NCBI GenBank assembly: GCA_004431415.1
Contig: QPMI01000086.1
Span: 1 to 52,917, forward strand
Direction: 5' to 3'
DNA length: 52,917 bases
Origin: Cyanophora paradoxa CCMP329
Taxonomy: Eukaryota; Plantae; Glaucophyta
The notes under the pieces were generated by a model that was not told where the DNA came from, searched no databases, and saw only the letters and a list, made by a program, of their open reading frames with translations. Below, one piece after another: positions 1 to 40,859 of this stretch (position 1 is its first letter; every line of letters begins with the position of its first letter). Both the position numbers and the translations under genes were made by a program.

Positions 1-608
1 CCATTCACTCGACCATCAGTAAAGATTCCATCAGTGAGAGCATCATAAACTTGGGATTTGATTGGGGAATTCCATATCTTCCAGGATCAAGACCAAGCAG
101 TCTAGCTGAACTCAATAGCTTTTGGATTGTTTGTTGGCTTGGTTTACAGCAAGTGAGAAAGCCAGGTAAAAAGGCACTGCCGAGTGGAATATAATTCGTT
201 TCAGTGACTCATCCCATTTGCAGCGAATGGATGGTTGGGAGTTCTGCCAATGAATTTTGAGTTGATTACATTCACCAGCTGTTGGTGGCTTTGGATGGGG
301 GTCTCGCGATTTACCATGAATTGTTTCCATTGTTCAAAATCAGCAGCTGGGCGAGTTGTTGGAATTCCTGAGCTTCCAGCTCCTGGAGTTTGTTCAGAAT
401 AATAAATACTAAATGTGTTATCAACTGTTACATCTCCTGCTTTGGTTTCACCACTCACCATAGGGATGCTGTTATAAAATTCGGCTGAGACCAGTCTCAC
501 AGCCCTCACATTCTCATAACTACTGGGGAGTCTAGCCACAAAGCTTGATGTGGGACCATCACCAGAGATTGTATTAAATGAGCTAACCTCGATGTAATCC
601 ACAGGCAT
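1..608 (-). CDS. Minor capsid/penton-like protein 1 (frameshifted in this sequence; runs off the window start)
   Basis: N-terminus YIEVSSFNT...SSFVARLPSSYENVRAVRLVSAEFYNS matches the NCLDV/PLV penton N-terminal pattern. A shifted frame near 80-110 gives ARLLGL, resembling the LLGF motif of these proteins. Confidence 0.65.
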
Positions 609-1566: not shown

Positions 1567-3101
1567 AGGCACCTGTAAAGTCCACTCTCATTGTGGGAGC
1601 ATTCACATACACAAGGGGATAAATGCGAATATATTTGATTCTCAGAGAAAAACCTATGTAAAAAGCATCCTTGATGCTGAGAGGAAATCCACTCAATAAA
1701 GCAACATCACCTGAGTTGTGAGCATTGTTGATGTTCTCACAGACATATATTTTGTTCTGCCCATCTGATCGAATAAAAGACCAGTTGATCCCATCAGTGG
1801 ATGTTGCCACATTGAAAGTCTTAATAAAAGCATTGGTGTCCCCTGATCCATAGGCAATCACAGAAGAGAGTTCAAAAGTATATGGAAAAGCAACTTGTAG
1901 GTATTCAGTGGGGTTTCCCATATCTGTTCAGGAGCATAGGCTCCAGCTTCCCAGCCAAATGCTGAAGGTCTAGCCATGAAAGCTCTTTACCAGTCACAGA
2001 GGATGAGGCAGTGAAGGCATCATCTGCAAGCTGATACCAATTAGCATCCAAAGGTGGTGATGTAGTGAGAGTGGATGAGATGTAAGCCTTTGTAGGGTTC
2101 TTTAATTCATAGTTTGCTACTAGAATGCTGCAAAGCTTATTAATCATATCATTGTTTGCTGCTATGTATGTTTCTGTGAAAGAAAGCATATCTGGGATTT
2201 TAGAAGTGTCATCCAGGGAGCTTACTATGTGATTCGGAAGACGGTACTGATAACCTATAGTATCTCCCATAATCCTGATCATAGTTGTAGGTAACAACTC
2301 CTCCATCTTATCAAGGGCAGAAAGCTCACTTGCAGCCATGAGCATGTAATCAATGGGCTTCCATCTGTTGAGGCAATCCATGAGAGAATGCCCAGCTGTT
2401 GACAGTCTCATAAGCATAACCCACATAATCAGACTCTAAATGTGGGTCCACCTCTCCACAGAGATACTTATTACTATAATGTCATCATCATCACTGTAAA
2501 TCTTCTTTGCATGGCTGTAACCACACACACTGGATTATTGTTTCCCGAAATGGCACCATCAATGAGACAGACATATACTCCCCGATTGAAATCAACAATG
2601 CTTACAGGTGAAAAGTATGTAGGAGCAGCAGAAGTAGCCCTAGCAGCAATCTTACAGGGCATAAAGTTGTAATTGTTATCATTGTGATAAATATTGGTTT
2701 CATATTCTGAGTATCAAAGATGTAATCACAATGTCCTTTAGGGAATCCTGTATTAGTGATTCCCCAGTAACTGAATTGATTGCAGTCTCCAAGGGTCCCA
2801 CATCATACTTTGTGTTAAATAGGGCATTTTCAATGATATTTCGAGGATTGCGAAAATCAAAGGCAGTTGAGTTAGGTAAATATTGTGTAAATCGTTTGCT
2901 GTCAGTTTAGGTTCACCTGGTCTATCAGGATGCCTTATATTCAACCTATTGCAATGATCCCACCAGTGGAAGTTCCACTCACAAGATCCACAAGATCGAT
3001 TATTCTCCTGCCAGTTCGATTTTCGATTTCTTTAGCAGCCTGGTTATGATAATGCCCCTTGCACCCCCGCCAGAAAGACTTAAAACGACCTTGAGAGGCA
3101 T
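1556..3101 (-). CDS. Patatin-like phospholipase fused to a C-terminal discoidin (F5/8 type C) domain (frameshifted)
   Basis: Manual translation from ATG at 3101 gives MPLKVVLSLSGGGARGII (Gly-rich loop), then DLVSGTSTGGIIA (GxSxG nucleophile), then LIDGAISGNNNP (catalytic Asp motif, ORF 2474-2662). The C-terminus EYLQVAF...STDGINW...YIRIYP...MRVDF is an F5/8C signature. Confidence 0.82.
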
Positions 3102-3143
3102 CTTTTACTTATCAGGAATTTATAAATCCATATAGTAAAAGCC

Positions 3144-6100
3144 ATGAGCTTCAATTACCCACCAAATCTAGAAACCATTCAAGATGATAATGCAAGCAGC
3201 ACCAAGCATGTGAACTTTGATAATATTAAAGTAAAGGGTTCAGTTTCAATTGACCACAGCTCTGATAATTCATCAAAGACTCAATCAAGGGAGCATGCTT
3301 TATCTGTGAATCAAACCGATCCAGATAAAGAGGATGTCAGTGTAGCCTTTAGTTGGGTAATGTGAAAGCAAACCAAGTGGCAGAGATCAAAGCAACAAGA
3401 AGGAGACCTAGGAAACTAAAAACCAGTGGCACTCACCAGATATACCTTCCAGGTTCGATAGTGGTCGATTGATTTTCAATGTTCAAGATGAGCAGGGCAA
3501 ACAGAACACAGCTTGCGAATTTACAATGAGGGCAGCACTGCAAAAGCTGAGGTCCCCAAGTATTGCAAGTGGGTCCCATTGCCAACACAAATCAGGTCTC
3601 CTACACAAATGATGTATACCCCAAGGATATTACATATGACTTTGCGAGGAATGAGCCTTTTGGGTTTTTACTCCAAAAGATGTCCATCAAAAAAAGCCAT
3701 CAATTACAATCAACAGTAGCCCCAGTCAACCAGTAGCAATCCATTTACATCCTGATTTAGTCGAAATGGATAGGCACCTTTTGCCTTTGTATAGCAATGT
3801 GAAAGACCTTGGAATTAGAACCAGGCAATGGCGAAATATCCATGGCAGCAATGTGTATGCAAATGGGAGAAACTTGTGAGTGAGAAAACTCTAAGGGAAA
3901 TAATTGAGCATTATGGTCCCAATGGACCAACAGTTCCATTCCCTATTCCATTTCCAAATGGACCTCCCGATTTAACACCAAAGAAACAGCCTGGAAGAGA
4001 ATACACAGCAACTGAAGATGTAGCCTTTGGGCAGCATATTGTTAGTTGGGAGCAAGTTCGCAATAAACCTATAATTGAACCCAGAAAGCAAATAGATGAG
4101 CAGTATTACCTCCTGAAGTCGATATATTAGAGCTTGATGAATATCAATTCGTTCCAGATGAGGAAGAGTATTTACCAGATGGTTTCGACCCACAAGAATA
4201 TGAGTATGATCAGTTTGACCCCAATGAGGAGGAGATACTCCCAGATGGTTTTGACCCACAAGAATATGAGTATGAACAGAACTATGAACCTGATGAGGAG
4301 TATTTACCAGATGGTCATGATCCACCAGCTGTTGACTATGAGCAACCTTATGAACCCCATGAGGAATTGTTACCAGATGGATTTCGACCTGAGATCTGGG
4401 AGTTCTTCCCTGATTATGAACAAATTAATAATAAACCTGCAAAGTATCCCCCAGAGGATCACAATCATGATTGGGATGAAATCTTGGGGAAACCTCAAAA
4501 GTATCCACCAGAGAATCACAGGCATGATTGGGGAGAAATTGATGGGATACCTACTGAGTTCCCACCAAGCAAACATGAACATACTTGGGATGAGATCAAT
4601 GACCAACCAGAATTCGCAAAGGTAGAGCCTCTTGATAACTTGGGGGTTTCTCTTTATCAGACTTGTAATGTCCCAGAAAGAATCTTTTTGAATGAACACT
4701 ATGTACATGTGAATGGGACACTTGCAAATTCAGCTATGAGAGGACCACTTCATATTAGGACATTACCAGGCTCTTTGAAACCCACCACCACCAGGAGCAA
4801 CCATACCAAATATCTTTGTGTCAAGCTACATGGAGGCTGACATTCCCACAGATACATTCAGAGTCCCAACAGACCCAGCAACCTACCAAAATTACAACTC
4901 TGCTATACAGGTTCATGTAGCAGATGTAAGCAGCTTAGATGGCTCAAGACCAATGATAGTTTTCAGTCGAGATAAGTATTCCTACATTCCCATAGTGGGA
5001 ACTGCAAATGATAATTATGGAAGGGCAGAGCTTGCATGGATTAAAACAGATTATGGTGGGGTTCTGGAAGCCAATCAAAGAATGGCTGCAAAAAACATAC
5101 ACAATGAGAGCATTTCGAGAGTAGTCACAGAGGATTACCTTCAAGCCCAAAACTACATAGATGAAACAGAGCTGAATGTAATCATTGCAGGTATAGGTGT
5201 AACAGGCAATTACCTCCCTCTCACAGGTGGAATAATTGATGGAACAGTAACAGCATGTAACTTCTTTGTCCATACTGAAAGCAATCAAACCTTTCCTGTG
5301 GTTCATCCAGGAGGTGAGTATGAGATACCTGATGATCCAGCTATTATGCCCATTAAGATTGATCTCCCTTCTGATTATGTTGGAAGGGGTGAACTGAAAA
5401 CGATCTCTTTCACAGGAGATTATAATGATCTCCTCAATAAACCCACCCCATCCAATTTACACCCTGTTGCATACTCAGGTAGTTTCCTTGATCTGAATAA
5501 TAGATCACACACCCACACAAAGGCAGAAATTATAGATTTGCACACACTCACACCAAATCCCAGATAACAGATTTTGCTCACTTCCACACCAGAGCAGATA
5601 TTACGAATTTCGCTCACACTCATGTTAAATCTGAGATCTTAGATCTCGGAAATGTTGCATATGTTGGTCACACCCATACCAAGGCAGAGATTACAGATCT
5701 TGGAAATGTTGCATATGTAGGTCACACCCACACTAAGGCAGAGATTACAGATTTTGCACATACTCATGATTGGAATACAGATATTTATAACAAACCAGCG
5801 ATTTTCTCGGGCAACTACAATGATCTGACAAATAAACCCACCCTTGATCCCTTTACAGCAAATAATATCACTGCAAATGCAAACCTTCTCATTGGATCAG
5901 GTTACTTTCTCGATTATGACCCATATATTATGCCTGATCCTCCTGTTATTTGGAATTTCCACAATTCAACCCTTTCTACTAACTCTATATCTTACTATCA
6001 GGATAAAACCCTACTTGTTCGTGGAAATGCATATGCAAGAGAAATGTGGGTCATGGATCCTCGGGACAATTCAAAGGTTACTAAGCTGGCTCCTCAATAC

Positions 6101-6408
6101 ATGCTTGATAACCTGATTAGAAAAGGGAGACATGAAATGACAATTGCAAATCCTCAAATTGGGGCAGTTCAGCAAGGCAAAACCATACCATTACATTAAA
6201 TTGGAGTCCTGCCTTTGCATCTGCTCCATCTGTTGTTGTAACATTGCAGGGACTACCTGCAACAAATGTGGAAATCGATTATAAAATAGGAATATCAAGC
6301 AACTCAACAACCTCTACCACAATCAATCTTGTTATTTGGGCAGCAGGATGGGTAACCATTCAACCACAGTGGCTTCAAATTGCAATTCATTGGATAGCAA
6401 CAGCATAA
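3144..6408 (+). CDS. Long virion fibre/adhesin-like protein (split by frameshifts; may be 1-2 genes)
   Basis: Consecutive + fragments contain acidic LPDGFDPxEYEY repeats (~4150-4400), HxHxWxEIxxKP repeats, FSGxYNDLxNKP, HTHTKAEITD repeats (~5505-5770) and YLPLTGG, all typical of phage tail fibres. The C-terminal FASAPSVVVT...IHWIATA* resembles an H-type-lectin/gp53-like tip. Confidence 0.65.
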
Positions 6409-6433: not shown

Positions 6434-7493
6434 ATGACCTCTCTATTAGAAATCCCAATTATGAACTTGCAGCCAAATCACTCCATAGCACCTCTCATGG
6501 AGTAGTTGATTCAACACCTGGGTATATTTGCACTGAAACTTCAAGTAATACCTCTTTCACAGAGAATAATATACTCAGAGTCAAAGAGATTAGATGTGAT
6601 CGAAATGGAGGCAAGATTAGAACCACAGGCATTATAATCTCGAATAAAAATCAAGTCCAATCAGTCAGGTAGTCCCGGATTCAGCAATATATGATAATGT
6701 GGGTGGAGTCACCACAGCACAGATAGTGACTTTTGGAACACAAGCAATAATTCCGCTCTTGTAGTCAAGAGTGGAGGAGCCTACATTGGAGATGGAGCAA
6801 ATGTAGCAGAACTGTCACAGCAAATCAACTATCTGTGAGTGGGACAAGTAGTTTTGGTGGGTATATGAATCTCAATGGTGGGCTTTCAGGGAATATTCAG
6901 TATGGAACACTCACGCTTTCCACAAGAATAACACACCTGAGATTGACAACATGAGTGACACAGTCATGAATTACAAGAGGAATGGGACACCATCTTTTCT
7001 CTTCAAAAAACAACTCAAATAGATAACACAACTGTTCAACATCTGACACTTCCGACAAGCAAATATCTCAAATTAAGTAGCCATCCTCGTTTCTTTGCAA
7101 CAAAACAGCAACCAAATGGGTCAATAACTGCAACAATTTCCTCAATAAATATATATCCAACAACAGGAGTCATAGTGAACCAAGGAAATCATTTCGATCC
7201 TGCGACAGGGCTTTTTACTGCCCTGTTACAGGAAACTATCTTGTCACATTTAGTGGATCCTGTTATTGGACTGGAAGAACAACTAATATTGTTACATTTT
7301 ACAGAAAAACGGAAGCTCATCTGGAATTGAAGTTAATACTAATTATGCATCTGCATATGCAAACAATGGGTTCGAAATTATTGTAGACCTTCAAGCCAAT
7401 GATTCCATCAGAATATCATATAATAGCAGTGGTGGAGGTTCTATATATTATAATATCAGATGGTTCTTTGGATGTATGCTTGTCCATTCATAA
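6434..7493 (+). CDS. Fibre paralog A: shared N-terminal module plus C1q-like head (frameshifted, absent from ORF track)
   Basis: Manual translation gives ILRVKEIRCDRNGGKIRTTG...ALVVKSGGAYIGDGA and then HPRFFA...NQGNHFDPATGLFTAPVTGNY (C1q motif). DNA is similar to 7516-8533. Confidence 0.72.
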
Positions 7494-7515
7494 TATTGTC
7501 TACATAATATAAAGA

Positions 7516-8533
7516 ATGTCTACACAAATAGCAGTTCCTGTTTTCTGTTATGCTGCCCGAAATTACATCAACTCAATCACACAGTAACAGATGCAACCCC
7601 TGGGTTTATTTGCACTGAAACAACAGGAGCCGATTCGTTTTCTCAAAACTCTGTGATCAGATGCAAAGAAATTCGATGTGATCGCAATGGGGGCAAGGTG
7701 AGAACCACAGGTTTAATAGTTTCAAACAAGAACCAAGTTCAATCAGGTCAGATAGTCTCAGATTCCACAATATATGATGATGTAGGAGGGTTCACCACAC
7801 CCAAAATAGTAACATTTAACAATACAATCAATAACTCTGCTCTTGTTGTGAGAAGTGGAGGAGCTTACATTGGAGATGGGGCAAGGGTTGATGGAACCCT
7901 AACAGCAAATCAGGTAAGTATTACAGGAACAAGCACCTTTACAGGATTGGTAACAGCAAATGCTGGTATTTCACTACCAATTGCCTCACAATCCATAATC
8001 ACAGCAACAAACAAGGTTGTCACACCAGAAATCGATACAGGAGCCAATGTAGACCTTCTTCTCAAACGAAATAGTAACACTGTCGCTACTCTGGAAGCGA
8101 ATAGTTTGACAGTTAATACAGGGTGTTATCTCAAAACATCACATCCACGATTTTCAGTTCAACTTGGCTACAATCACACTGCTACAACTTCTGCTGATCT
8201 AATAAACTGGGCAACAGTTCGAGTAAACAATACCAATTCATTCAGCACATCAACTGGAAGGTTCACAGCACCTGTTGCAGGACACTATCGTTTTTCAGTA
8301 TTCACTTCTTCAACCACAACTTCTGCTATTGAATTGTTTCTCAGGGTAAACAATGCAGATCCAGGGGATTGAGCATTTCCCAAGTTCACAATCTGTCAAC
8401 AACAAATAAAGCGCTGTGTTTCTCTTGCATTCTCAATCTTGCCCAAAACGAATTTGTTACACTTGTTACAAATTCAGTCGGTTCATATGCAAGTCAAACA
8501 GCCTTCTCAGGTGAATTAATAAGCATCGTTTAA
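7516..8533 (+). CDS. Fibre paralog B: shared N-terminal module plus C1q-like head
   Basis: ORF 7653-8372 has KEIRCDRNGGKVRTTG, SGGAYIGDG and FSTSTGRFTAPVAGHYRFS (C1q). A shifted frame ends FSGELISIV* at 8533; likely start ATG 7516. Confidence 0.78.
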
Positions 8534-8555
8534 TTTTCTTATGGTAGTTTAGGAA

Positions 8556-8822
8556 ATGTCGAATATTTACCAAGTGGTTCTATCTGATATTGAGAAGTTG
8601 GGAATGGAATTTTGTGCTGCTTCTGTTCAGGATTGGATCGATAATGCTGCCCATAACAGAGCAAGAATTGCAATTGATGAGATTGTTCAGAAAGAAATCC
8701 ATTCTTGCATCTCAGGTGGAGTTCAAATACCAACCTCAAAGGAAGCGATTGTATTACAGGCATTCCAAAGGGGAACTGTGAAGAAAGCAATTGAGTATAA
8801 CAATGTCACAGAAGAGCTGTGA
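8556..8822 (+). CDS. Small phage-like protein, putative fibre-associated/assembly partner
   Basis: Intact 88-aa ORF. The motif SVQDWIDNAAHNRARIAIDEIV...IPTSKEAIVLQAF resembles small proteins I recall adjacent to C1q fibre genes in tailed phages (recollection, not searched). Confidence 0.6.
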   Translation: MSNIYQVVLSDIEKLGMEFCAASVQDWIDNAAHNRARIAIDEIVQKEIHSCISGGVQIPTSKEAIVLQAFQRGTVKKAIEYNNVTEEL

Positions 8823-8857
8823 ACATTATTTTTCTTTCCTTCTTAGTAAAAGAAGCA

Positions 8858-9703
8858 ATGGGTGAATATAATCGAGTTCAACTGCCTATATATTCCCTTG
8901 GATCCCCAGCAATGCACTTTCGCCAGCATGAAGTTAATGATGAGGTTCGTGGTTTAGAATCCACAGAGAGACCCAATTCCAATGGCAACTCCTTTGATAA
9001 AAATTCGATTATTCGAGTTAAAGAGCTGAGAGCTGATAAGAATTCTGGTGTGGTTAAAACAACTCGACTTCTTGTCACAAATGCTAACTTCTTTCAGCCT
9101 ACTAATGGAGGTCCTGATGCTTACAGTGTTGATCTGAAAGCCCTTGATTATGATAAAAACACTGCTGCTGTAACTGTGAGATCAGGAGGAGCATTTATTG
9201 GTGGTGGCTGCAGAGTTTCAGGTCAACTTTCATCCTCAATTTCGTATAATGATGTCCCAGATACTCTTGAACAAAATGTAGAGAACCCACAACGAATTCG
9301 ATTATATATACCAGTTGCACAACAGCCAGTTATTCAATTTTACCAAGGTTATACTGTCACACTTGAAAACTCTGAATTGATTGAAGGAACCAAAAGAGTA
9401 ATGAGAGGGCTGGTCATTCCTTCTGCAATGCTTTCTTTATGTAGAGCCAACAATAACCAGCCAGGTCACAGATACAATTTCAGTGTTCAGGGATATGATC
9501 ATTTTGGCACAGGGTTCTGTGTTTATAATAACAATTTCACCTATGATCTGTTTGTTACAGATATTGGAAAATATACAATTACAGTTATGGGTATCAGAAC
9601 AGATATAGCTGCTGTCTCAGCTCTTAGAGGTGTTACTCCTGATACTCTTTCTCAAACAGGGTTTTACCAAGAGCCAGATGTAATTGATGACCCAACCCCA
9701 TAA
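8858..9703 (+). CDS. Fibre paralog C: shared N-terminal module plus phage-fibre-type C-terminal domain
   Basis: Intact ORF (track 8819-9703; likely start MGEY). Contains IRVKELRADKNSGVVKTTRLLVTNANF, SGGAFIGGG and C-terminal YTITVMGIRTD. Confidence 0.72.
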   Translation: MGEYNRVQLPIYSLGSPAMHFRQHEVNDEVRGLESTERPNSNGNSFDKNSIIRVKELRADKNSGVVKTTRLLVTNANFFQPTNGGPDAYSVDLKALDYDKNTAAVTVRSGGAFIGGGCRVSGQLSSSISYNDVPDTLEQNVENPQRIRLYIPVAQQPVIQFYQGYTVTLENSELIEGTKRVMRGLVIPSAMLSLCRANNNQPGHRYNFSVQGYDHFGTGFCVYNNNFTYDLFVTDIGKYTITVMGIRTDIAAVSALRGVTPDTLSQTGFYQEPDVIDDPTP

Positions 9704-9726
9704 AAGATATATCCCTTTAATGTAAA

Positions 9727-10560
9727 ATGGCTGAGCAACCCCCACTTGAACGAATTATTACACCACAGCTATCATTAGCTGCCCCAGCAAACCATGTTCT
9801 ACAGCATGCTACCTTTGATGATGTAGAGGGTCTCCAATCGACAGAGGTCCAACCTACAATGAACACCTTTGGTTCCACCCATAAACTGAGATTACAGGAA
9901 CTCAGATGTGATAAAAATAATGGAATAGTTAAGACAACTAAGCTACTTGTTACCAATGCAAACTTTTCTGCTCATTATGGAGACCCAGATAGCTATGGAG
10001 ATCCTCTTTCTACTTATTCTTTTGAATCTAGGTCGGGAGCTATTAACTGCAAATCGGGGGGAGCTTATATTGGTGATGGTCTTAGGGTTGGTGGGGCTGT
10101 TGGAGCGCCTCTATTTGTGAATGATCAACCCAATCCCATTGATCCCAACACAAGAATTCGAACCTATGTCCCCAGCATGAATGCCCCCTATATAATCAAG
10201 ATATTCCCCATTGTTGTGAATGAACAAACAGCAGTAGTAGATTCTCTTGTTGAGATTGGTGACCACTACAAGGTAGTTGTGGATATTCCACCAGATGTTT
10301 ATGCTCTTTGTCAAGTAGAGGGTGGAACTCCTAATTTTGCAGTTGTGATCACCCCATATGATAATTTTGGTATTGCTTATCATGGAGTCAATTTCGGTTT
10401 GGAAGACTATCAGTTTCTGGTTAGAGCCACCAAGTTTGGTATCTACAAGTGTGTATTATATGCTGAGAGAACCGATTTTATTGCAAAGCAGAATACCTAT
10501 GCTGAATACTATGGGACAAATCGATATTTCCCCATTTTCGGGCAGGATACTGCTCCATAA
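9727..10560 (+). CDS. Fibre paralog D: shared N-terminal module plus phage-fibre-type C-terminal domain
   Basis: Intact 277-aa ORF with LRLQELRCDKNNGIVKTTKLLVTNANF, SGGAYIGDG, FVNDQPNPIDPNTRIR and ITPYDNFG...VLYAERTD; paralogous to C. Confidence 0.75.
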   Translation: MAEQPPLERIITPQLSLAAPANHVLQHATFDDVEGLQSTEVQPTMNTFGSTHKLRLQELRCDKNNGIVKTTKLLVTNANFSAHYGDPDSYGDPLSTYSFESRSGAINCKSGGAYIGDGLRVGGAVGAPLFVNDQPNPIDPNTRIRTYVPSMNAPYIIKIFPIVVNEQTAVVDSLVEIGDHYKVVVDIPPDVYALCQVEGGTPNFAVVITPYDNFGIAYHGVNFGLEDYQFLVRATKFGIYKCVLYAERTDFIAKQNTYAEYYGTNRYFPIFGQDTAP

Positions 10561-10582
10561 GAATATTGGTTATATATAGAGT

Positions 10583-10855
10583 ATGGATAGTAAAACAAAA
10601 AAGTTTATTGATGCTGCTATGACAGTCCATGGTAAAGATAAATTCGATTACAGTGAGACACATTACATCAAAGCTCAAGAGAAAGTATCTGTTAGATGTT
10701 TGCAATGTAACAAGGTGATCCTAACATATCCCTTTAATCATGTGAAGGGATCAGGGTGTAGGGACTGTAACAAAAGAAAGAGTCAAGCACACAGGAAAAG
10801 GGCTACTTCATCAATCAGAGTAGAGTATAGGGATATTTGCATTAGGTTTGACTAG
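10583..10855 (+). CDS. Zn-ribbon protein (DUF723/homing-endonuclease-associated repeat)
   Basis: FIDAAMTVHGKDKFDYSETHY...KVSVRCxxC...HVKGSGCRDC matches the repeat found in phage and giant-virus endonucleases; no nuclease domain is attached. Confidence 0.7.
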   Translation: MDSKTKKFIDAAMTVHGKDKFDYSETHYIKAQEKVSVRCLQCNKVILTYPFNHVKGSGCRDCNKRKSQAHRKRATSSIRVEYRDICIRFD

Positions 10856-10878
10856 TTAATTTTTCTAAGGTATTCTTA

Positions 10879-11277
10879 ATGGAGACTAAATACAGAGGCT
10901 TTCATGTTATGCTTGATTACAAGGCTAAATCAGCTATTGCAACAGGACATGAGCATGTAAGCTTCCTAGGTAATTGGATTATGGGAACCCTTGAACAAGC
11001 AGTATTAAGACAAGGCATTAGGATTGTTCATAAACACTGTGAGATATTTGATGGCAAAATATCACCTCCTGGTTTTGCATTGGTTCTGCTATTAGATGAA
11101 AGCCATTGCACAGCTCATTGTTATTCCAATGAAGGCATGTTAGCAATTGATATATTCAGTTGTGGTAAAGAAGCTCAGCATAAAACACAAGCAGTTGCAG
11201 ATGAGATCGATAAAACAATGAATTTCTTAACATTTGAGAAGACTGAGAGACATAAACATGATAGATTCCCGTTTTGA
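10879..11277 (+). CDS. speD: Prokaryotic-type S-adenosylmethionine decarboxylase proenzyme (or neofunctionalised homolog)
   Basis: Intact 132-aa ORF with GFHVMLD, PPGFALVLLLDESHCTAHCY (E-S self-cleavage site) and AIDIFSCG. Confidence 0.88.
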   Translation: METKYRGFHVMLDYKAKSAIATGHEHVSFLGNWIMGTLEQAVLRQGIRIVHKHCEIFDGKISPPGFALVLLLDESHCTAHCYSNEGMLAIDIFSCGKEAQHKTQAVADEIDKTMNFLTFEKTERHKHDRFPF

Positions 11278-11693
11278 TGGGTTTCTATTATGGTGATCAG
11301 GGTGATTTACCTTTTTATTACAATGGCAATCGTTAAAAAAGGATATAATATATCCTTTCCTACAATAGCTTTCTACAATGATTTTCTTTCTACAGTAGCT
11401 TTTGTTACAATAGAATTCTACTGTATGATGTAGCCGAAATATGAATGCACCCTACATTAAGCAATGTCAAGTATTTCGAATACTATTCGATTTCCTTACA
11501 ATAACACTCAGCATCTGCCCTAGATTCCCCCTATTATATTATATTTATATTTAAGTGGACTCAAGGTTGACTCATATTAATCGTAAAAGTAGTAAAAGTA
11601 TATGGATTTTGTTACGAATTCAATGCAAGGGTTGACTAAGTGGGTTGAGTTGACTCAAATTTCACAGGAAATAACAATGAATCAGAGTATAAA

Positions 11694-12153
11694 TGCATTT
11701 TTTGAATCAACTACACCAACTAACACTGAGATTTTACCAATATATGAGGTCCTTACTGAATATGGTTTGTGTGACAGGTGTGACAGGTCTATCCCAAACT
11801 TTTCTATAGCATAAAAATGAACTCTCAAAAGTTTGGGATGGACCTGTCACACCTGTCACACTCGATTATTTCATTTGTTTATTCAAGTAGAATTACATAG
11901 ATAAACTTCTTACTTATTGTTACTGAGTTTTTCATTATAAAAGAGATCCTTACTGAATATGGTTTGTGTGACAGGTGTGACAGGATGCATTTTGTGAATC
12001 AACTACACCAACTAACACTGAAATTTTAACATTAAAAGAGATCCTTACTGAATATGGTTTGTGTGACAGGTGTGACAGGTCTATCCCAAACTTTTCTATA
12101 ACATAAAAATGAACTATCAAAAGTTTGGGATAGACCTGTCACACCTGTCACAC
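11694..12153. repeat. Duplicated ~165-bp unit, each containing a 35-bp inverted repeat of GTGTGACAG(G) iterons
   Basis: Arms 11769-11803/11827-11861 (1 mismatch) and 12061-12095/12119-12153 (perfect), each with a 23-bp spacer. A half copy lies at 11966-11984. Confidence 0.92.
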
Positions 12154-12405
12154 CCAATTATTTCAAAAATCCTAAGGGTCCCCCCTTAGAATCATTAAAA
12201 CATGATAAAAACATATAAGTTTCATGTATAATTACGATTGGATTCAATAAGAGATCGATTTGTTTTATTAAACAAATGAATCTAATATGGATCTTAATCG
12301 AGTTAAGCGATATATTTCCGATTAAATGAATTAAATTTAATTAAATTTAATCGAGAAAGTACATGAATATAATATCGATTAAATCAATTAACTTTTAGAC
12401 CAATC

Positions 12406-12688
12406 ACACATAGTAAAATGCGGAGTTTTAACCAGAGGCAAGATCTAATTGAGATTCAGTTATATTATTCGGAAATATATACAGATTATCGATAGACTCA
12501 GTAAGACTAATCGGAAAATAAGAGAAATTTACGATAAAATATCGAAAAGAATACAAAATAATCGAAATAAATGAATATTCGATAAGATATACACAGATTA
12601 TCGATTGATTGAAATAGAATATACGAGATATATCAACAAAATCAATTAAGATAAGCCGAGGGTTAAAACTCCGCATTTTACTATGTGT
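12406..12688. repeat. Terminal imperfect hairpin of the viral element (28-bp perfect stem)
   Basis: ACACATAGTAAAATGCGGAGTTTTAACC (12406-12433) is the exact reverse complement of 12661-12688. The interior shows patchy inverted symmetry. Confidence 0.88.
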
Positions 12689-13801
12689 CACAGCAGCTGA
12701 TTCACTGCGACGACGTGCTGCGAAACCTTGAAGCCCAAGGCATAGCCAACGATTTCGACGGATACCGGTGCGTACAAGTCTAGATCTACACTCCAAATCA
12801 GAAAACATGCGTGTCTTAGTTGCATGCAATAGGGTGCATGCACCCGTGTTCGATCTATCCATAAGCTGATCGAACTTGGCCTCAGGTATATGCTCACGAA
12901 GATTATGCAAAGTACGAAGGACATCCCAGAGCAGTTCGCGTTCTCCGGGGCTGAGAAAGTCTGGGACAACCTGTACGGCTACATGACGCCGGAGGTGGCG
13001 AGCAACTCTATCTGGGCGCAGACGGTGACGAAGACCATGACGGAGAAGGACGTGCAAGCCGCCATCGCCAAGTTCGATGCGGCCGGCGACAACGATGGGA
13101 TGCTGGACAAGAGCGAGTTCCTGGCGTGCCACGAGCCCGTCATGTCTACATTCAACCCGAACTCGACCGAGGTGCGCGAGCTTCTAGGCGAGCTATATGT
13201 AGGTTGATATTAAAATCGGACTGCACGAGCAAGCGTACGTATATCAAACTTCTCTTTTTCCGCAGCTCACATACAGCACCGACCCTGCAGCGGTGCGTAT
13301 GCGCATGTTCTTCATTTCTATCGTTTTCAGCCCAGAACAGCATGCATACCGCCTTCCTTCTAGAGATAATCCCATTCGAACTTGACTTCCATGATTGTCA
13401 CTCGGGGTCTCTGAACGTGCACGCAATCGCAGGATTTTGAGTACCAAATGAAACTGCAGCAGGTGGAGATGTTCAAGCAAATGTTCGGGCCCGGGGAAGA
13501 TTACATGATGTACATGGATCATTATCACGTGCGCATACGCATGCGCATAAACACGGGCCACAACTCTCATAATGATAACTTGACATGGGGCGCGAGCTCG
13601 AGGGCGCGAACCCCTCTGTACAGTGTCCCGCTAGCGCTACCCCAGCCGGCCGACCCCGACGCCTGTGTCGCCGGGCAGGTGGAGGAGCCGTCCGACTTCG
13701 AGGCGGCGGAGGTCGAGTTTGCTGAGAACGCTGCCGCCGACGAGGCCGCCGCCGCCGCTGCCGAAGTCGCCTGCGCGGACGAGCAGTGCCTGGCTTCTTG
13801 A
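12689..13801 (+). pseudogene. Host EF-hand-containing gene, copy A, 3' part cut off by the viral insertion
   Basis: Near-identical to 30,247-31,358; EF-hand-like DAAGDNDGMLDKSEF. The acceptor gtagg of copy B reads ataag here (~12,861-12,865). Confidence 0.75.
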
Positions 13802-14193
13802 TCCCCTGCATCGCGTCCACGACTGCTATACTATAGCTATCGTTGTTTGTCTGCGTGCCCGCCAAACCGTCGACAGCGTGTCTGCCAACGCGTACGTAAA
13901 CCGATCGCTATAAATGTAAATATTTATAGATGATCGTGATCAGTCACCTGCACGGTATCTGTCTTGGTTGTTGATTGAGCAGCCGAATTTTCATACGTGT
14001 TCCAGGAGCGGGCGAGCTGAGCTCAGCCAGAGGGAGAGTATATATATGCATTGTCCAGCCTGAGATCGCCTACAGCTAGATATAGAAACATATATGTCTA
14101 GATACTTTGACTAGTGGCCAAATAACGCGCTGTACCAAAATAACGCGCCCGCGGCCAAAACTAGGTACCGGGTTGATTTGACATACGTACGTA

Positions 14194-17100
14194 CTAGTGG
14201 CCCGGCCGCGATTCTCGCGCCGGGGGTGCAAGGGGGGAACCGGGATCTAATGAAAGAGTCCTAGTGGCGCGCACATGCGCGCGGCAGAACGACCCCGGCC
14301 CAGTGCGCGCGGCAGGTCGAAGGTTAAAGATAAACACAGATTATGATTGGAAAAATAGAAAAGGCCCGATAAGCACACGCTGCGATCAAACCGAATAACG
14401 TGATGCTACACAAACTGCCGGATTTCAGACAGCTCGAGAGCTTGGGCTCGAGACTCGGGCAGCCACCCGAGACCTCGGGACGGGTAGCAGAACTGGCAAA
14501 AAACGGGTAGCACGTAGGGACAGTTCGCTACAAAGAGGCACGAGATGCCGCAACAGCACGCAACCGCGCGGGAGAGCGAAGAGCGTGTACCGGAAGCACC
14601 GGGCGGGTAGCTAGGCGCGCTGGATAGCTCCCCGGCGCCCGCGCCGCCGACCGACCCGACACCCTGTCTTCGGCGCGTTCGCACGCCCCGCGCGGCGAGT
14701 CTGGCCTAGTCTGGCCGCTGGGGTAGTTGTATATATGTTGCAGCCGGCACGTAGCTAGCTACAGCCAGCACCGCGGACGCCCCGCGCCTTGTGTGAACGG
14801 CCGACCTGTGCGGCTTCGGTGACTGGGTGCGATCCATCGCTCCAGGCGCGGCAGTATCGCTTCCCAGGGTGCCACATACATGCTATTGCACTTACGCTAC
14901 TGCGGCCCCTTCTCTGACCGCGGCCGCAGTGTCACAGTGTGCTCGGGAGAGCGCGGGCCGGGGCGCTTCGCGGGGGCAAGCGTGGTGCGGTGCCGTCATG
15001 CGGAGCAGGGTTCTACACAACTAAGAGCAGCGTTTGTCATCACAGAACAAGTCCGCACTCGCTGGCGCGGCACGTCGCTGTCCACCGTGCTTCTCTTGCT
15101 CTCGCAGAACAAGTCCGCCCTCGCCGGCGCGGTGCACCGCTGTCTGCGGCGCCGCCAGCTCACGCCGAGCCCGCCCGTGCAGCCCCGCCCGCGCCCCCCG
15201 CCCGCCCGCCGCGCGCCCCGCCGCAGGAGGCCGCGGGGCACCGCCCCGGGCGCCTCGGACGCGAGGGGACGACGCCGCGACGCCGCCGACGCCGCCAGCT
15301 CACGCCGAGCCCGCCCGTGCAGCCCCGCCCGCGCCCCTCGACCGCCCGCCGCGCGCCCCGCCGCAGGAGGCCGCGGGGCACCGCCCCCGGGCGCCTCGGA
15401 CGCGAGGGGACGACGCCGCGACGCCGCCGACGCCGCCAGCGGACGCCGAGCCCGCCCGTGCAGCCCCGCCCCGCGCCCTCCACCCGCCCGCCGCGCGCCC
15501 CGCCGCAGGAGCCCGCGCCGGGCAGCCCCCGGGCGCCTCAGACGCGAGGGGACGACGCTGCGACGCTGCCGACGCCGCCAGCTCAAGCCGAGCCCGCCCG
15601 TGCAGCCCCGCCCGCGCCCCTCGACCGCCCGCCGCGCGCCCCGCCGCAGGAGGCCGCGGGGCACCGCCCCCGGGCGCCTCGGACGCGAGGGGGCGAGGCC
15701 GCGACGCTGCCGACGCCGCCAGCTCAAGCCGAGCCCGCCCGTGCAGCCCCGCCCCGCGCCCTCCACCCGCCCGCCGCGTGCCCCGCCGCAGGAGCCCGCG
15801 CCGGGCAGCCCCGGGCGCCTCAGGCGCGAGGGGACGACGCCGCGACGCCGCCGACGCCGCCAGCGGACGCCGAGCCCGCCCGTGCAGCCCCGCCCCGCGC
15901 CCCCCACCCGCCCGCCGCGCGCCCCGCCGCAGGAGGCCGCGGGGCACCGCCCCCGGGCGCCTCGGACGCGAGGGGCGAGGCCGCGACGCTGCCGACGCCG
16001 CCAGCTCAAGCCGAGCCCGCCCGTGCAGCCCCGCCCCGCGCCCTCCACCCGCCCGCCGCGTGCCCCGCCGCAGGAGCCCGCGCCGGGCAGCCCCCGGGCG
16101 CCTCAGGCGCGAGGGGACGACGCCGCGACGCCGCCGACGCCGCCAGCGGACGCCGAGCCCGCCCGTGCAGCCCCGCCCCGCGCCCCCACCCGCCCGCCGC
16201 GCGCCCCGCCGCAGGAGGCCGCGGGGCACCGCCCCGGGCGCCTCGGACGCGAGGGGGCGAGGCCGCGACGCCGCCGACGCCGCCAGCGGACGCCGAGCCC
16301 GCCCGTGCAGCCCCGCCCTCACTCCCCGCCCGCCCGCCGCGCGCCCCGCCGGAGGAGCCCGCGACGGACCGCCCCCGAGGGCCCAGGACGCGAGGGGGTG
16401 AGGCCGCGACGCCACCGACGCCGTAGATCAGCCCCCTAGGCCCTGAGGCCTAGCTTCATGTAGCTTTGCTTTCTCGCCTCAGAGGCCCACTTTCGCGACC
16501 CAGAGGCCTTCCTTTAGCCTATGTTTTGTTCCAAAAGCATGTAAATGACTTGTATTCTGCGCCCTGAGCGCTGTATGCGACTGGGCGGGCGAGGATCACT
16601 CAGGAGGCATCTGGGGCCCCAATTTCCAGTAGTTTTTGAATACGGGCCCAGGCTTTGATCGGCGGCCTTCGGTACCACCACCATCGTCTTCAGCACCCTC
16701 GAAAACCCCCGGGGACGTGAAATCATCGTTGTTGAGTGAGTTGATGCTTCAATCAGGCATCATGAGCACGTCGAAGTGGCATTTTGGAACTTGAAAACTG
16801 AAAAGTTCCAGAGAGGGTCCTACGAGTAAAGTTCAAAACATCGGTCCGGCCCAAAAACACTTCGGATCACCCTGTATCTTCGTGCAGTGATATATCTACA
16901 TGTGATAATGATTCTGGCTGAAAGAGCGCCCGCTGGGGCCAGCCAGTCGCCCAGGAACTCACTGGCTCACTGGAACTCATGAGCAATCTCTGCTGGGGAA
17001 GCGCGCGCCAGGGCCGCGCTGCATCCGCGCATGCGCTATTCATGCGCTAATTGAATCGCGCTACGGCGGCCCTGCGAGTCCTCGCGGTGCTGAGCCCTCG

Positions 17101-19479: not shown

Positions 19480-21985
19480 GCAAGAGGCCCCGCGGGGGCC
19501 TCGGCGCCCTCCTGCACCTCCGCAGGCTCAGCGGCTCGTCGTAGACCTGCCCCCCGCCGCCCGACACGCCCTCCGCTTCCCCGGCGCCCGCGCCGCCCGC
19601 CGAGTACCTCCACTCCAGCCGTACGCGTGCGCCCCGTGCACCCGCTCCGCCTGCCCCCCCCCTCCCCCCCCCCGGGACCCCCCCCCCCCACCCCCCACCC
19701 CCCCCCCGCTGAGCGTGGCGCGGAGGAGAAGTGGAGTCCGGGGAGGGCTTTCTCAACCTCTCACAGTCGGGCCTGAAGGCGTGCACGTGGCCCGCCAAGG
19801 AGATCGCCGCCGTCGGCCCCGCGGCCGAGAACGTCCGCGAGCTGCGAGCTCGACCTTGGCGCCCCCCCTCCCCCCCCCTCGCCTTGACCTCGAGCTCTCG
19901 AGCTCGCCCCGCGCATGCGCAGCGCCGCCGCGCCCCGCCCCGCGCGTCCGTGACCATACCATACGTGATACGTATACGTGACCATACCGACGTCCGTGAC
20001 GGGACGAAAAACCGCATCATGCATATGGCATTGAATTCGAAAGCCTCCGTCCCGGTGCCGAACCCGCTTAAAGATGTCGAAAAACCCCGCCCCGGTACCG
20101 AACCCGCGCACGGATCGTTCGGCAGCATTTTCTCGGCTGTAGCTAGCAGCGAACTGCGCGGCGAGAGGAGCTGCTCGGCAGCTTCGAGGGAGCTGTACCG
20201 ACGATTCGAGGGCGGGGCGGACGATTCCACGGCGTCCGTCGATAAATCGTCACCCTTTCGTCGGCTGGAGAGCGTCGTGGCGTGCTCGTCTCTAGCTACG
20301 CCTCCGTCGAATTCGACTCCGGATCCGCGGGCCCGGGCCCGGTGGGCGCGGTCGGGCGCGGTCGGGCGCGTGGTACCGGTGCCACGGTGTTCGGCGGCAT
20401 CCGGGGCGAACTCGAGGACGCCCTGCGGCCATCGCCGCTCGTTCCCGGATCCCCGGAGTCCGCGGGGCGAGATTTCGACCAGCCGGCGGTCAGCTCCTCT
20501 CGGCGGCGCTGCGGAATGGTGCGCTGGGACGCGGCGAGCGGCGCGCTCGTCATGAAGGAGGAGAAGAGGAATTCGAAGCATGCACTAGCCGCAGGACGAG
20601 GTCCAGCTGGCCGGCCCGGACCGCCTCCGCCTCCTCGACCTCGCCGACAACAAATCTCGTCCATCCTCGGCGCGCCGCGCCGCCTTCGGTCCCGCCGCGT
20701 CGCGTCGCGCGCGGCCGCCAGCTGCAGCTGACAGGGCCCGTGGCGCCGGCGGGCCGGCGCGCAGGGAAGAGCCTGGCGCCGCTCGCGAAGCTGGATGTGC
20801 TGTTCCTCGACGGCAACGGGCTCAAGGCGCTCCCGCCGGAGATCGGGCGCCTCACAAACCTGCGCACCCTCGGCTTGAACCGGAACAAGTGCGCCGCCCG
20901 CCCGCCCTTTGCCCGCCTGCCCCCGACCGAGCGCGCCGCGCCGCGCCACAGGCTTGCGCACATCCCGTCGAGCTGCGGTGCGCCGCGCCGCCGCCGCGCC
21001 GCCACGCCCACCGGCGCGGCGCGCCTCACGGCGGCGCCGGCGCGGCAGGAAGCTGGGCGTGGAGCGGAACGAGCTGGCGGCGCTGCCGGCGTCGCTGGGG
21101 CGCTGACGGAGGCGCAGCCCGCCGACGAGCCTGGAGGCGCAGCCCGCCGACGAGATCGCCGCCGTCGGCCCCAAGAACGTCCACGAGCTCGACGTCGGCG
21201 GCAACCTAATCCGCTCCCTCCCCGGCCCGCCCCGCCCCGCCCCGCCCCGCGCCGCCCCGCTCCGCCCCGCGCCGCGCCGCCCTGCTGACCGGGGCGTGAA
21301 CGTGCACGCGCAGGGCCCGAGCTCGCGAAGCTGGTCAACCTCACCTGGCTGCGCCTCACGCACAACCTGTGCGCGCCCGCCGCCCGCACCGCCCCGCCCT
21401 CCCCCGCCCGGCCCCCTAGCTATAGGCCTCGCGCTGAAGCCCGGCAGGCTGACAGAGCGCTAGCTGCCGCCGGAGCTGGGGCGGCTGACGCGGCTGCGGA
21501 CGCTCCTGCTGCGCGAGAAAAAGCTTTTCAGCCTGCCCTGCGAGGGCGGCGCCCTGGTCAACCTGCGCGAGCTTCGCCTCTCCGGGAACGGCCTGCAGCT
21601 GCGGGCCCTGCCCCCCGAGCTCGGCCGGCTGCCCCGGCTCGAGGTCCTGCACCTGTACCCCAACGAGCTCCTGCGGCTGCCCCCCGGCTGCCGCGAGGGC
21701 GACCCGCCCGAGGCCCTCCTCGAGTGCCTCCGCTCCCTCGCCGCCTCGCCCCGTGCGCCGCGCGCCCTCCGAGGCCCCGCCCCCGCCCTCGCCCGCCCCT
21801 CACCGCTCGCCGCAGAGTCCTCCTCCGGCCCCTTCGGCTCCCGCCTTCCGAAGTTCTGGTACCGGTGCGCCCCCCTTCCCTTCCTTCCCGGCGTGCTGGC
21901 CCCCGCCCGCGGCGAGCCGCCGACGTGGCGCCAGCGCTAGCAGCGCGGCCCGGGGCCGCTGGAGCTCGCCCCGGGGCGCCTCCGC
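19480..21985 (+). pseudogene. Leucine-rich-repeat gene, copy A (multi-exon, 3'-truncated)
   Basis: Exons encode LAKLDVLFLDGNGLKALPPEIGRLTNLRTLGLNRNK, LPPELGRLTRLRTLLL and LRELRLSGNGL. 21,460-21,975 is paralogous to 31,970-32,475; similarity stops at ~21,975. Confidence 0.75.
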
Positions 21986-29157: not shown

Positions 29158-31358
29158 CTGTCGAGGTCAACGGCCAAGGCACCTACATGTACTCGCACGG
29201 CGGCCTCTACGTCGGCGATTACGCCAAGCCCGGTCTCGAGGCGAGCGAACGACTTCAGATAAATTCAAACATGTGGTCAGAGAGACCGTCGGACGATCAG
29301 ATGTGCTAACCAGACGGCGAGCTCAGGTCGGAACGTACGAGATCTATGCCCGCGACGTCAAGTCCTCAGCCGTCGAAACGCCGGTGCACTCATCGGAAAA
29401 TGTGGACCCTAACCAGGTACGCTCACGCTCGCAACTGCAAACTTGTAGTTTAGGGTCTTCCGATATCCAGCTGGATATCGCTCCTCGAAAGCTCGTCGCT
29501 GATGCAGTGCATATCCATGCTCTGCACGCAGGAGCAACTGCCCCGTGGCACCTCAATCCGGCTGGGGACCCATCATCACCCCGGACGGCGAGGCCACGGG
29601 CGACCGCGTGCGCATGCGCTGATCTGTCTGATCTCTCTCAGCTGAAATGCTGATGGACGGACCGGGTACCGGCACTATGTCACTCGCGCAGGTCCCGCGT
29701 CGGAAGTTCTGGAGGCGTCGGACAGCACCGACCTGGAGCCGCGGCAGACAATCTCTGGTCCGCGATCCGCTTTGCTATCCGATGTCCCTGCTTGACGCTA
29801 CACTGTCCACGCTGCCGGCAGGGATCTGAAGCTCATTCCCGAGTTCAAATCGGACTCGATTCCAGGGCCCAAATCATGCCCCACGGTTCGCTTACGCGCT
29901 TCTCGCTTCGCTAAATTGAAGTGCTACAAGAAGAACATGCATATGCTTTCTCACGGCAAACTTCGTTTGTCTGTGTCATCGCAGGGAGAGTGCCTGGACG
30001 TCCAGGCCCCCATCCACAACGCTACGGACTTTCTCAAACCGCCTGCGAGTGCGTTTCGCATACTTTAAACCTCACGCACAAATATATATATAGCATACAT
30101 TTGCATATATACGATTTATAAACCAGCGTCGAGGTTCAAATTCGAATTCAGGGCCAGACGTTGAGATCGCGCGCGCGTGCGGTTTCGCAGCAGCGAGTCG
30201 GCCACCTGCGAAGTGCCCGTGGGCTTGAAGTGCCCGCTTGCGAACGCACAGCAGCTGATTCACTGCGACGACCTGCTGCGAAACTTCGAAGCCCAAGGCA
30301 TAGCCAACGATTTCGACGGATACCGGTGCGTACAAGTCTATATACAGCTCGATTCCAAATCAGAAGTCATCCGTGTGTTAGCTGCATGCACTTGGGTGCA
30401 CGCACCCGTGTTCGATCCGTAGGCTGATCGAACTTGGCCTCAGGTATATGCTCACGAAGATTATGCAAAGTACGAAGGAGATCCCAGAGCAGTTCGCGTT
30501 CTCCGGCAAGGAGGCAATCTGGGACACCCTGTTCGGCTATATGACGGCGGAGATGCCGAGCGACCTTATCTGGTCTAATGTTGTGAACAAGACCATGACG
30601 GAGAAGGACGTGCAAGCCGCCGTCGCCAAGTTCGATGCGGCCGGCGACAACGATGGGATGCTGGACAAGAGCGAGTTCCTGGCGTGCCACGAGCCCGTCA
30701 TGTCTACATTCAACCCGAACTCGACCGAGGTGCTTGAGATACAAGGCTATATAGCTCGCTAGAGACCGATGCACGTGCAAGTGCACGTGCAAGCGTACAT
30801 ATATCAAACTTCTCTTTTTCCGCAGCTCACATACAGCGACGACCCTGCAGCGGTGCGTATGCGCATGTTCTTCATTTCTATCGTTTTCAGCCCAGAACAG
30901 CATGTATACCGCCTTCCTTCTAGATATAATCCCATTCAAACTTGACTTCCATGATTGTCACTCGGCCGCGGGTCCCTGAACGTGCGCGCGATCGCAGGAT
31001 CGTGAGTACGAAATGCAACAGCAGAAGGTGGAGATGTTCAAGAAAATGTTCGGGGAAGATTACATGTTGTATATGGATCGTTATTTCGTGCGCATATGCA
31101 TATGCATGGGCCACTTTAAATTCTCATAATTATAACTTGACATGGGGCGCGAGCTCGAGGGCGCGAACCCCTCTGTACAGTGTCCCGCTAGCGCTACCCC
31201 AGCCGGCCGACCCCGACGCCTGTGTCGCCGGGCAGGTGGAGGAGCCGTCCGACTTCGAGGCGGCGGAGGTCGAGTTTGCTGAGAATGCTGCCGCCGACGA
31301 GGCCGCCGCCTCCGCTGCCGAAGTCGCCTGCGCGGACGAGCAGTGCCTGGCTTCTTGA
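29158..31358 (+). CDS. Host multi-exon gene with an EF-hand-like motif and acidic tail, copy B (uninterrupted; 5' limit uncertain)
   Basis: Short exons bounded by AG and GT/GC encode SVEVNGQGTYMYSHGGLYVGDY, VGTYEIYARDVKSS, CEVPVGLKCPLANAQQLIHCDDLLRNFEAQG, FDAAGDNDGMLDKSEF and VEEPSDFEAAEVEF...CLAS*. Confidence 0.65.
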
Positions 31359-31821
31359 TCCTCGCATCGCGTCCACGACTGTGCATCGCGATCACTTGCA
31401 CGGGATCTGTCTCGGTCCTTGAGCAGTCGAATCATTGAATTCGCAGTTAAATATGCATCTACCCACTTGAGAATCCGAATCTCTCGACACATATATACGT
31501 GTCCCGATCCAGCATTAATATTAGCAATCGCAGCCTGGCGAGCCAATTCTCGGCGCGCATGCATTGTCACGCTTAAGATCGCCTGCCAGCTGAAGGCTGA
31601 GGCCCTTCCGTTTGGCTCGGAGATCTAGATCGATATCTACATACATGATTTCGATCTAGATACATGTAGATACTTTGACTAGTGATAAATGAACGCTGTA
31701 TCAAAATAACGCGCCGAAGTCTTTAGATACCGCGTTAATTGATAAACGTACCGCGCTATAGCTATATAGCTAACTCCCTGCTGCGATGTCGCCCATACAT
31801 TACACTCCCGCGGGAACCTCG

Positions 31822-39042: not shown

Positions 39043-39736
39043 CGCCGTGACGGCCGGCCCTTGGCCGTCGCCCGGATTCCCCTTCGAATCACTTTCGCAT
39101 TCCGGGATCCTTTTAATTGTAAATAATATTTAGTGCGAGATTGCTCGACTCGCCTTCTAGTGCTGCCTTCAGCTTGGCTTTGTATTTGTACATTTGCAAT
39201 TGATATCGGTTCCTTATAGTCATACTGTATCGATATCCGCAGTTTCTATGGACATGATCATGAGCGTTGCGATCGCTGTAAAACCTCAAATTTGAGTTCT
39301 ACCTCCCATGATCATGAGTGTCGTCACTTGTACTACTACTTGCAAATGCAATATTTATGTAATTGCAGATCCCGCTTGCCAAGTGGAATCCTCCCTCTCA
39401 TGAATGTCGTCGACGTCTTTTACAAATGCGATATACTTAGTTATAAATAATTACTGAAGACGCAAGCGACACTTCGAAAAAAAAGGTTGACGTCGGACAG
39501 TGCACGTGTAACATGTGGAAACACAAGCTGTCAAGCGCACCGCGCCGCGCCGGCCCTGGCGGAGGTCAACGGGCGGACGCGGAATTCGAGTTCGAGGAGC
39601 TCGAGGCGGGGGGCGGCCCGGCGGCGCGTGGTTGGCCGGCCTCGGCCTCCCGCGCCTCGCGCCCGCCACCTGTTTCACGCAAACGGACAACCGACACGCG
39701 TGAAATCTCTCTCCCTCCCGCCTCCTAAGGCAAATA

Positions 39737-40685: not shown

Positions 40686-40859
40686 TATCATTCGAAATTC
40701 CCACAAGTGATTCTTCATATATCATGTCCGCATCGATGTAACTGGTGGGCTACGAAGCGACATAGATCCAGTCGACTTCAAATTCGGAACAACATTATGG
40801 TGCACGATACTCCTGTTGACATCAGAATGGCGACTGCATCTAATATAAGAAGTTACACG

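Follow-up and report, generated by a model that had tools for sequence, protein, structure and literature searches.

Palindromic ends have been described in endogenous viruses of protists. The accessible text of a preprint (bioRxiv 10.64898/2026.07.28.741278) reports palindromes that lie within the terminal inverted repeats (TIRs) and adjoin the target duplications of endogenous virophages and of one subtype of Polinton-like viruses (PLVs); in Halocafeteria seosinensis, they are found in virophage subtypes 1, 2, 5 and 6 as well as PLV subtype 4, the subtype 5 palindrome is 52 nt in length, hairpin priming is proposed, the palindromes are linked with non-pPolB replication genes, and the screen admitted gaps of no more than 10 nt. 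In the part of PMC7909422 that was available, the telomeres of poxviruses, ASFV, chloroviruses and Kaumoebavirus are described as covalently closed, incompletely base-paired and present in flip and flop forms, and the Kaumoebavirus ends carry a 102-nt flip/flop loop adjoining a 1032-bp TIR. Endogenous PLVs of protists, as portrayed in the accessible portions of PMC10120064 and PMC12220804, resemble the element studied here in their low GC content, many copies and long TIR (inferred in our case), and their accessory genes include phage tail repeats and discoidin, the latter either by itself or in fusion with patatin (PMC12220804). The terms "hairpin" and "palindrom" are absent from the main texts of PMC12220804, PMC8547959, PMC7805220 and PMC10120064. 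No long-loop end was found in the accessible text of the preprint, the supplements of which may list longer palindromes, or in the literature on hairpin ends of virophages, Polinton-like viruses and endogenous protist viruses, within which subscription papers were thinly covered.

The window, a stretch of 52,917 nt, covers only the last 12.7 kb of an endogenous viral element that ends in a 283-nt unit (12406 to 12688). As far as the preprint text goes, this end is like those of H. seosinensis in that an inverted repeat at the tip of a TIR abuts host DNA in a multi-copy, low-GC endogenous protist virus; however, the palindromes described there are tight, whereas the 28-bp arms found here enclose 227 nt. 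Because this gap far exceeds the 10 nt allowed, the screen of the preprint would miss the 283-nt unit. The unit also recalls the telomeres of poxviruses, ASFV, chloroviruses and Kaumoebavirus, as described in the available part of PMC7909422, in being an AT-rich imperfect fold-back outside a TIR of approximately 1 kb, but it differs from them in that an extended duplex of 283 nt, seen in one orientation, is joined to host DNA. The sequence-only reading knew of no description of an integration route from hairpin ends; its claim to novelty has to be narrowed, as terminal palindromes and a hairpin-priming model are already contained in the preprint text. The concept of a terminal palindrome is known, and what is new is a long, loosely paired loop of fixed orientation across two subfamilies.

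The two arms of the stem, the inner at 12406 to 12433 (+ strand) and the outer at 12661 to 12688 (- strand), form a perfect inverted repeat (28/28 pairs), the inner arm being an inverted copy of the terminal 28 bp of the element. No other match to the arm was detected in the window at up to three mismatches, and none arose in 100 shuffles. The stem is perfect through the last viral base, T12688, and the sequence beyond the arms adds no pair; the DNA fold of the unit, at -51.1 kcal/mol (z -10.6), was equalled by none of 200 shuffles. An Rfam search over 11200 to 13000 gave 30 matches at E values up to 1, all below the gathering score and none in the unit.

The position of the junction, 12688|12689, was set by a host paralogue at 30247 to 31381 (+ strand), which lacks the insertion and serves as a surrogate empty site. 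The host flank at 12689 to 13825 (+ strand) is one copy of a duplicated host region and matches this paralogue at 88.7% over 1154 columns, with 90 of 93 nt identical from 12689 onward and 1 of 30 nt identical just before it. As the identity begins at 12689, the stem finishes on the last non-host base. Thus, the perfect 28-bp stem around 227 nt and the exact coincidence of the hairpin with the integration junction, both proposed beforehand from the sequence, were confirmed. The G + C content is 33-42% to the left of 12688 versus mostly above 50% on the host side, and the junction of the window is crossed by one single-copy contig of run X2 and one contig of run X1. Judging from its sequence, the host would be a GC-rich microbial eukaryote. 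The duplicated host region has an EF-hand-like open frame, with the virus at the 5' edge of one copy. Elsewhere in the host DNA, a leucine-rich-repeat gene region is duplicated (21455 to 21783 and 31975 to 32303), and a GC-rich tandem array with a 141-nt period lies at 14880 to 16514. A 955-nt host element at 39734 to 40688 is almost entirely an inverted repeat, with arms 100, 84 and 57 nt long (96-100%), and ends in TACTAGT...ACTAGTA, possibly representing a foldback transposon; a 115-nt end fragment of it lies at 14192 to 14306, 1.5 kb from the viral junction.

To the left of the unit, the genes are those of a virus. A penton/minor-capsid-like gene with in-frame stops (637 to 1560, + strand) is 45% identical over 309 aa to an intact relative of 314 aa, P0153. 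The structural model of P0153 is of low confidence (pLDDT 39.7); with it, the mavirus penton occupied ranks 1 to 4 in the PDB at E values of 0.04 to 0.095, with no PDB match at 0.001 or better, and a viral library returned proteins of giant viruses and of a PLV, Tetraselmis viridis virus S1, at 2e-6 to 6e-4, the Tetraselmis viridis virus S1 protein at 4.5e-4. A model from the single sequence was unusable (pLDDT 32.9). No match to P0153 was found in the PDB by sequence, no Pfam match was obtained for this penton-like candidate, and the Atlas was blank for 637 to 963. Two open frames of L001, a giant-virus-like metagenome contig (16 to 1296 and 4267 to 5907), share the N- and C-terminal motifs of P0153 and were used as rows of the fold alignment. 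For the open frame at 204 to 608 (- strand), a penton-like character is not supported: longer proteins yielded no homologue, the Atlas gave no usable match, and the frame bears no likeness to P0153.

The remaining genes are mostly accessory in kind. A discoidin (F5/8 type C) domain (1556 to 1927, - strand; PF00754, E 2.3e-7) lies downstream of two fragments of a broken patatin-like phospholipase (2474 to 3108, - strand; PF01734, E 9.3e-6 and 3e-5, both below the curated cut-off). These are followed on the + strand by a fragmented fibre-like gene carrying phage tail repeats (4830 to 6199; PF12789, E 1.3e-6), with repeat matches in 625 representatives, and by a fibre-like frame with a C1q domain (7494 to 8372; PF00386, E 3.2e-8). 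Sequence comparison revealed two intact paralogous open frames of 281 and 277 aa, 35% identical, at 8858 to 10560 (+ strand), with no Pfam or PHROG match; together with 6508 to 7912, this region forms a set of tandem paralogous genes with a common N-terminal motif, and two relatives, P0001 and P0002, share 62-65% identity with the second of them. The last genes before the terminal repeat are an endonuclease-like fragment of 90 aa and an S-adenosylmethionine decarboxylase of 132 aa (10583 to 11277, + strand; phrog_681, E 3.2e-9, and PF02675, E 2.8e-11). Low GC content, a possible penton gene and, among the accessory genes, phage tail repeats and discoidin together with patatin recall the PLVs described in the accessible literature, and the gene content fits this group. 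Endogenous PLVs are marked by a double jelly-roll major capsid protein, a packaging ATPase, a minor capsid (penton) protein, TIRs of hundreds to thousands of bp and either an RVE integrase, with a duplication of 4-6 bp, or a tyrosine recombinase. Within the window, Pfam and PHROG revealed no gene for a major capsid protein, an ATPase, an integrase or replication. The element is a multi-copy endogenous virus, probably a Polinton-like one, this being the best label; as the core genes lie outside the window, no PLV subgroup can be named.

The copies of this end were compared in contigs from 6 of 24 public runs, each of the six being a set of contigs; the stretch from 8500 to 12900 is present in 20 of the 24 runs, under one organism code throughout. 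The same end, ...TGTGT, is joined to at least five other GC-rich flanks among the loose ends listed (15 of 19). Two of these flanks are common to X1 and X2 and match the window through 12691 and 12692, so that their placement is probably owed to this extra match, while three further flanks in run X16 diverge after 12688 (two) or 12689 (one). T12688 is retained at all five of the other junctions listed, three of which do not have CA next. In addition, a GC-rich flank is present at 12404 in one X1 contig, where the junction may be assigned to either arm.

On the viral side, the flank is constant. With single contigs compared to single-copy host contigs, the loop has a depth of approximately 33x in X1 and 63x in X2, and contigs tying the inner arm to the viral flank reach approximately 36x in X1, placing the inner arm next to viral sequence on its left in some 36 of some 40 copies; the depth ratio is 0.89 to 1.07, all of these being rough figures, as base composition affects depth and the ratios differ twofold between runs. 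By depth, the viral left flank is kept in nearly all of some 30-60 copies, and the four long contigs that cross the flank boundary all continue into AT-rich sequence. The end is thus precise, is joined to many host sites and has its inner arm attached to viral sequence; many right flanks combined with one viral left flank indicate the tip of a virus, as had been supposed when the stem base was taken for the end of a viral element. The insertion is multi-copy, with a precise end and a GC content that departs from the host's.

The depth in X1 is approximately 16x at 11312 to 11434 versus 33x at 12427 to 12528, and a contig of run X15 joins 998 unlike letters at 11510. This drop in depth together with the different interior suggests a TIR of approximately 1.2 kb (11510 to 12688) at both ends of the element, of which the window shows one. 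Within this region lie two copies of a 93-nt palindrome with 35-bp arms and twin GTGTGACAG motifs (11769 to 11861 and 12061 to 12153), which belong to a 292-nt duplication and constitute, from sequence, a candidate origin. Within 11693 to 12165, the twin GTGTGACAG motifs face each other across an AT-rich spacer, with a third half-site at 11966 to 11984; the arrangement resembles an iteron origin. One X15 contig is without one palindrome unit, skipping 295 nt, and the copy number varies between elements. Patterns of GTGTGACAG had no match in viral_contigs.

A diverged form of the end, subfamily B, is present at approximately 7x in X1, X2 and X3. It has 11 differences from the window copy over the 86 positions of 12402 to 12487, a replaced middle of 114 letters instead of 103, and an AT-rich flank of its own; both sides of the unit can still be aligned with it, and the contigs of this subfamily finish at 12688. 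Approximately five differences were counted per side of the unit. The two-arm geometry is preserved in this subfamily. Beyond this genome, the first 18 nt of the arm had no match in viral_contigs, and scans of the same collection for related loci with five protein or alignment queries confirmed none. The first 20 nt had a single match in metagenome_contigs, on L001, which is taken as chance because the match ends after 20 nt and no second arm occurs in the sequence examined.

The interior of the unit is of a different character from its stem. The loop (12434 to 12660, + strand) is A-rich, with 108 A and 59 T in 227 nt and 26% GC, and consists of a 19-bp imperfect stem extension followed by a 112-nt direct repeat. 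At stem positions 29 to 47, 10 of 19 pairs form, TAATTGA/TCAATTA among them. Past position 47, the exact register yields 23/94 pairs and a slip of 1 nt yields 41/92, each against 29% expected; the latter figure was reached by 17 of 2000 shuffles with the axis held within 3 nt on either side, by 35 of 2000 with the CG motifs held fixed, and by 226 of 2000 when the axis was free to lie up to 40 nt away on either side. Folding of the inner 189 nt does not surpass that of shuffled sequence (z -1.0 and -0.3), and the best local inverted match within them is unremarkable, being equalled by 1413 of 2000 shuffles; a gapped global fold-back alignment was matched by 31 of 1000. The direct repeat at 112 nt is significant, being reached by 4 and 9 of 2000 shuffles in two tests, and is made of CGA motifs approximately 10.5 or 21 nt apart with weak mirror pairing. 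Of the inverted blocks read earlier as preserving register, TAATTGA/TCAATTA does so, ATCGATA/TATCGAT is 1 nt off, and CGATA-AAA-TATCG, supposedly near the centre, is centred at 12538, 9 nt from the axis at 12547. Purine-purine mismatches, which had been singled out as a feature, number 38/71 in register and 29/51 after the slip versus 56% expected, a proportion that follows from the A-rich composition of the strand. Taken together, the stem is strong and the loop is loosely paired at most, and a direct repeat describes the interior at least as well as a fold-back does.

The CG motifs extend beyond the loop. From 12200 to 12660, across the inner arm, there are 17 CG outside the arm at spacings of approximately 10.5 or 21 nt, all 17 preceding a purine (15 A, 2 G); the phasing of the CGA motifs is modest (p approximately 0.03-0.05), and they continue to the left of the inner arm to about 12200. 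The observed/expected ratio of CpG is 0.25 in the viral body and 2.6-2.75 in the last 460 nt, compared to 1.15-1.2 in the host. The likeness of the left flank at 12170 to 12405 to an old inverted copy of the loop is weak: it was reached by 16 of 1000 shuffles in the inverted sense, and by 240 of 1000 in the direct sense.

With regard to orientation, the loop lies as in the window in all seven informative contigs, which come from three runs of low depth and form a small sample; no flip/flop isoform was seen among them. Four of these contigs span flank, arm and loop (X15 record 12, X16 record 9 and X17 records 13 and 14), and the other three are X16 junction contigs that include two loop bases. 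None of the four joints listed changes strand, all being skips. The deep runs break at the arms and are hence uninformative in this respect. Runs X15 to X17, which are RNA by guess only and served as contigs rather than as evidence of expression, have long contigs over 11361 to 12688 and across other virus-host junctions, the host flank of the window itself being uncovered in them.

Hairpin ends that prime their own copying are familiar from the parvoviruses, small viruses of ssDNA that possess an HUH nickase and whose hairpins are well paired, in which (AAV ITR, left end of MVM) a 3' fold-back pairing at the base of the stem can self-prime. AAV resolves its termini by means of a nick like one at 12405|12406 here, which inverts the loop, whereas the left end of MVM keeps a single orientation through asymmetric resolution. 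No HUH nickase gene such as those of parvoviruses was seen in the window. For the present element, we favour, as the probable though by no means secure explanation, that the 283-nt unit is the exact tip of the virus, that its stem self-primes from the 3' end, and that an integrase joins T12688 to the host. In a single strand, the 3'-terminal T12688 would pair with A12406 and its 3'-OH would point into the genome, which is the geometry needed for self-priming. Extension from the folded 3' end would leave a hairpin-shaped end; a cut at the stem base on the 3' arm could then free the same 3' end for transfer to the host by the integrase, and gap filling after the transfer would restore a duplex with the loop orientation fixed. 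Repair from the opposite terminal repeat would be another route to a fixed orientation, and a nick at 12405|12406 would invert the loop in every round. The single orientation may thus reflect either opening at the base of the stem, on its 3' arm, or repair from the other TIR. The phased CGA motifs may serve less for pairing than for the binding of proteins in an origin-like region. Against self-priming stand the weak pairing of the loop and the prediction by simple rolling-hairpin replication of both orientations, of which one was seen (7/7 in the three low-depth runs); no free or snap-back form of the viral DNA appears in the runs used, all of which are contigs. Opening at the stem base and joining of the 3' end fit the precise end and the single orientation, and the route proposed is that of the sequence-only reading without its pox-type flip/flop.

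The chief rival is that the tip is the same but forms no hairpin, with the inner arm serving as a further site at which the integrase or an origin protein binds duplex DNA, like the subterminal repeats of many transposons. Such a site would itself predict the fixed single orientation, and it accords with the better fit of the loop to a direct repeat than to a fold-back and with the continuation of the CG lattice across the inner arm into 12200 to 12405. However, the inverted inner copy matches the terminal 28 bp to the last nucleotide, exceeding what a binding site needs, the residual pairing is found near the same axis (17 of 2000 shuffles), and a cleavable inner end should set free copies of the 283-nt unit, and these did not turn up in quantity. 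We therefore consider this explanation unlikely, while giving it the most weight among the rivals.

Pox-type telomeres and a transposon rank lower. Covalently closed telomeres of the poxvirus/asfarvirus type, resolved from concatemers and opened at the stem base upon integration, would account for the AT-rich loop (26% GC) with its weak near-register pairing and for the coincidence of the stem base with the junction, and they have a precedent in a protist virus, Kaumoebavirus, according to the available part of PMC7909422. Covalent closure and opening at the stem base are possible as such, but telomeres of this type occur in inverted complementary flip and flop forms, whereas the seven informative contigs all run one way (the X1 contig whose host flank lies at 12404 has no assignable orientation and does not enter this count) and none of the four joints listed changes strand; moreover, the loop has more than double the length and is for the most part without pairing. 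The likeness to pox and asfarvirus ends drawn from the sequence is accordingly not supported, as no flip/flop form appeared in the seven informative contigs and the interior is weakly paired, and we regard such telomeres as improbable. Finally, a 281-bp CAC...GTG MITE with a TCA duplication, sitting at or causing the virus-host junction, is suggested by the short non-coding unit with its TIRs, by TCA on both sides of the 27-bp arms in the window copy, by two other junctions that read TCA (likely placed because of that extra match) and by the GC-rich flank that one X1 contig has beside the inner arm, but it is largely refuted and very improbable, as the paralogue has G where the duplication requires T, three other junctions retain the T without CA, TCA thus being no target duplication, viral sequence lies to the left in nearly all copies by depth and in all four long contigs, and host sequence does not return to the left of the unit.

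If the end is copied by self-priming and opened at the 3' stem base as proposed, it would bear on how PLVs without a protein-primed polymerase copy their ends and integrate, a matter on which, in its accessible text, one preprint proposes hairpin priming with tight palindromes. In the long-loop form, the sole need may be a stem that ends at the last base, which widens the targets for screening. Dozens of ends from two subfamilies in one genome make the self-priming model directly testable, and loop orientation together with covariation of the arms would distinguish terminal resolution, opening at the stem base and duplex binding. More tentatively, and as a possibility that we do not expect to be the likelier outcome, there may be a family of PLVs whose free genomes bear long, loose hairpin telomeres of fixed orientation, with CGA sites in phase with the helix for an end-binding protein, and whose integrase opens the hairpin at the 3' stem base and passes it directly to the host DNA. 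If this were true, loose hairpin telomeres would escape current palindrome screens, and such a family would bridge the telomeres of giant viruses and the small viruses that integrate.
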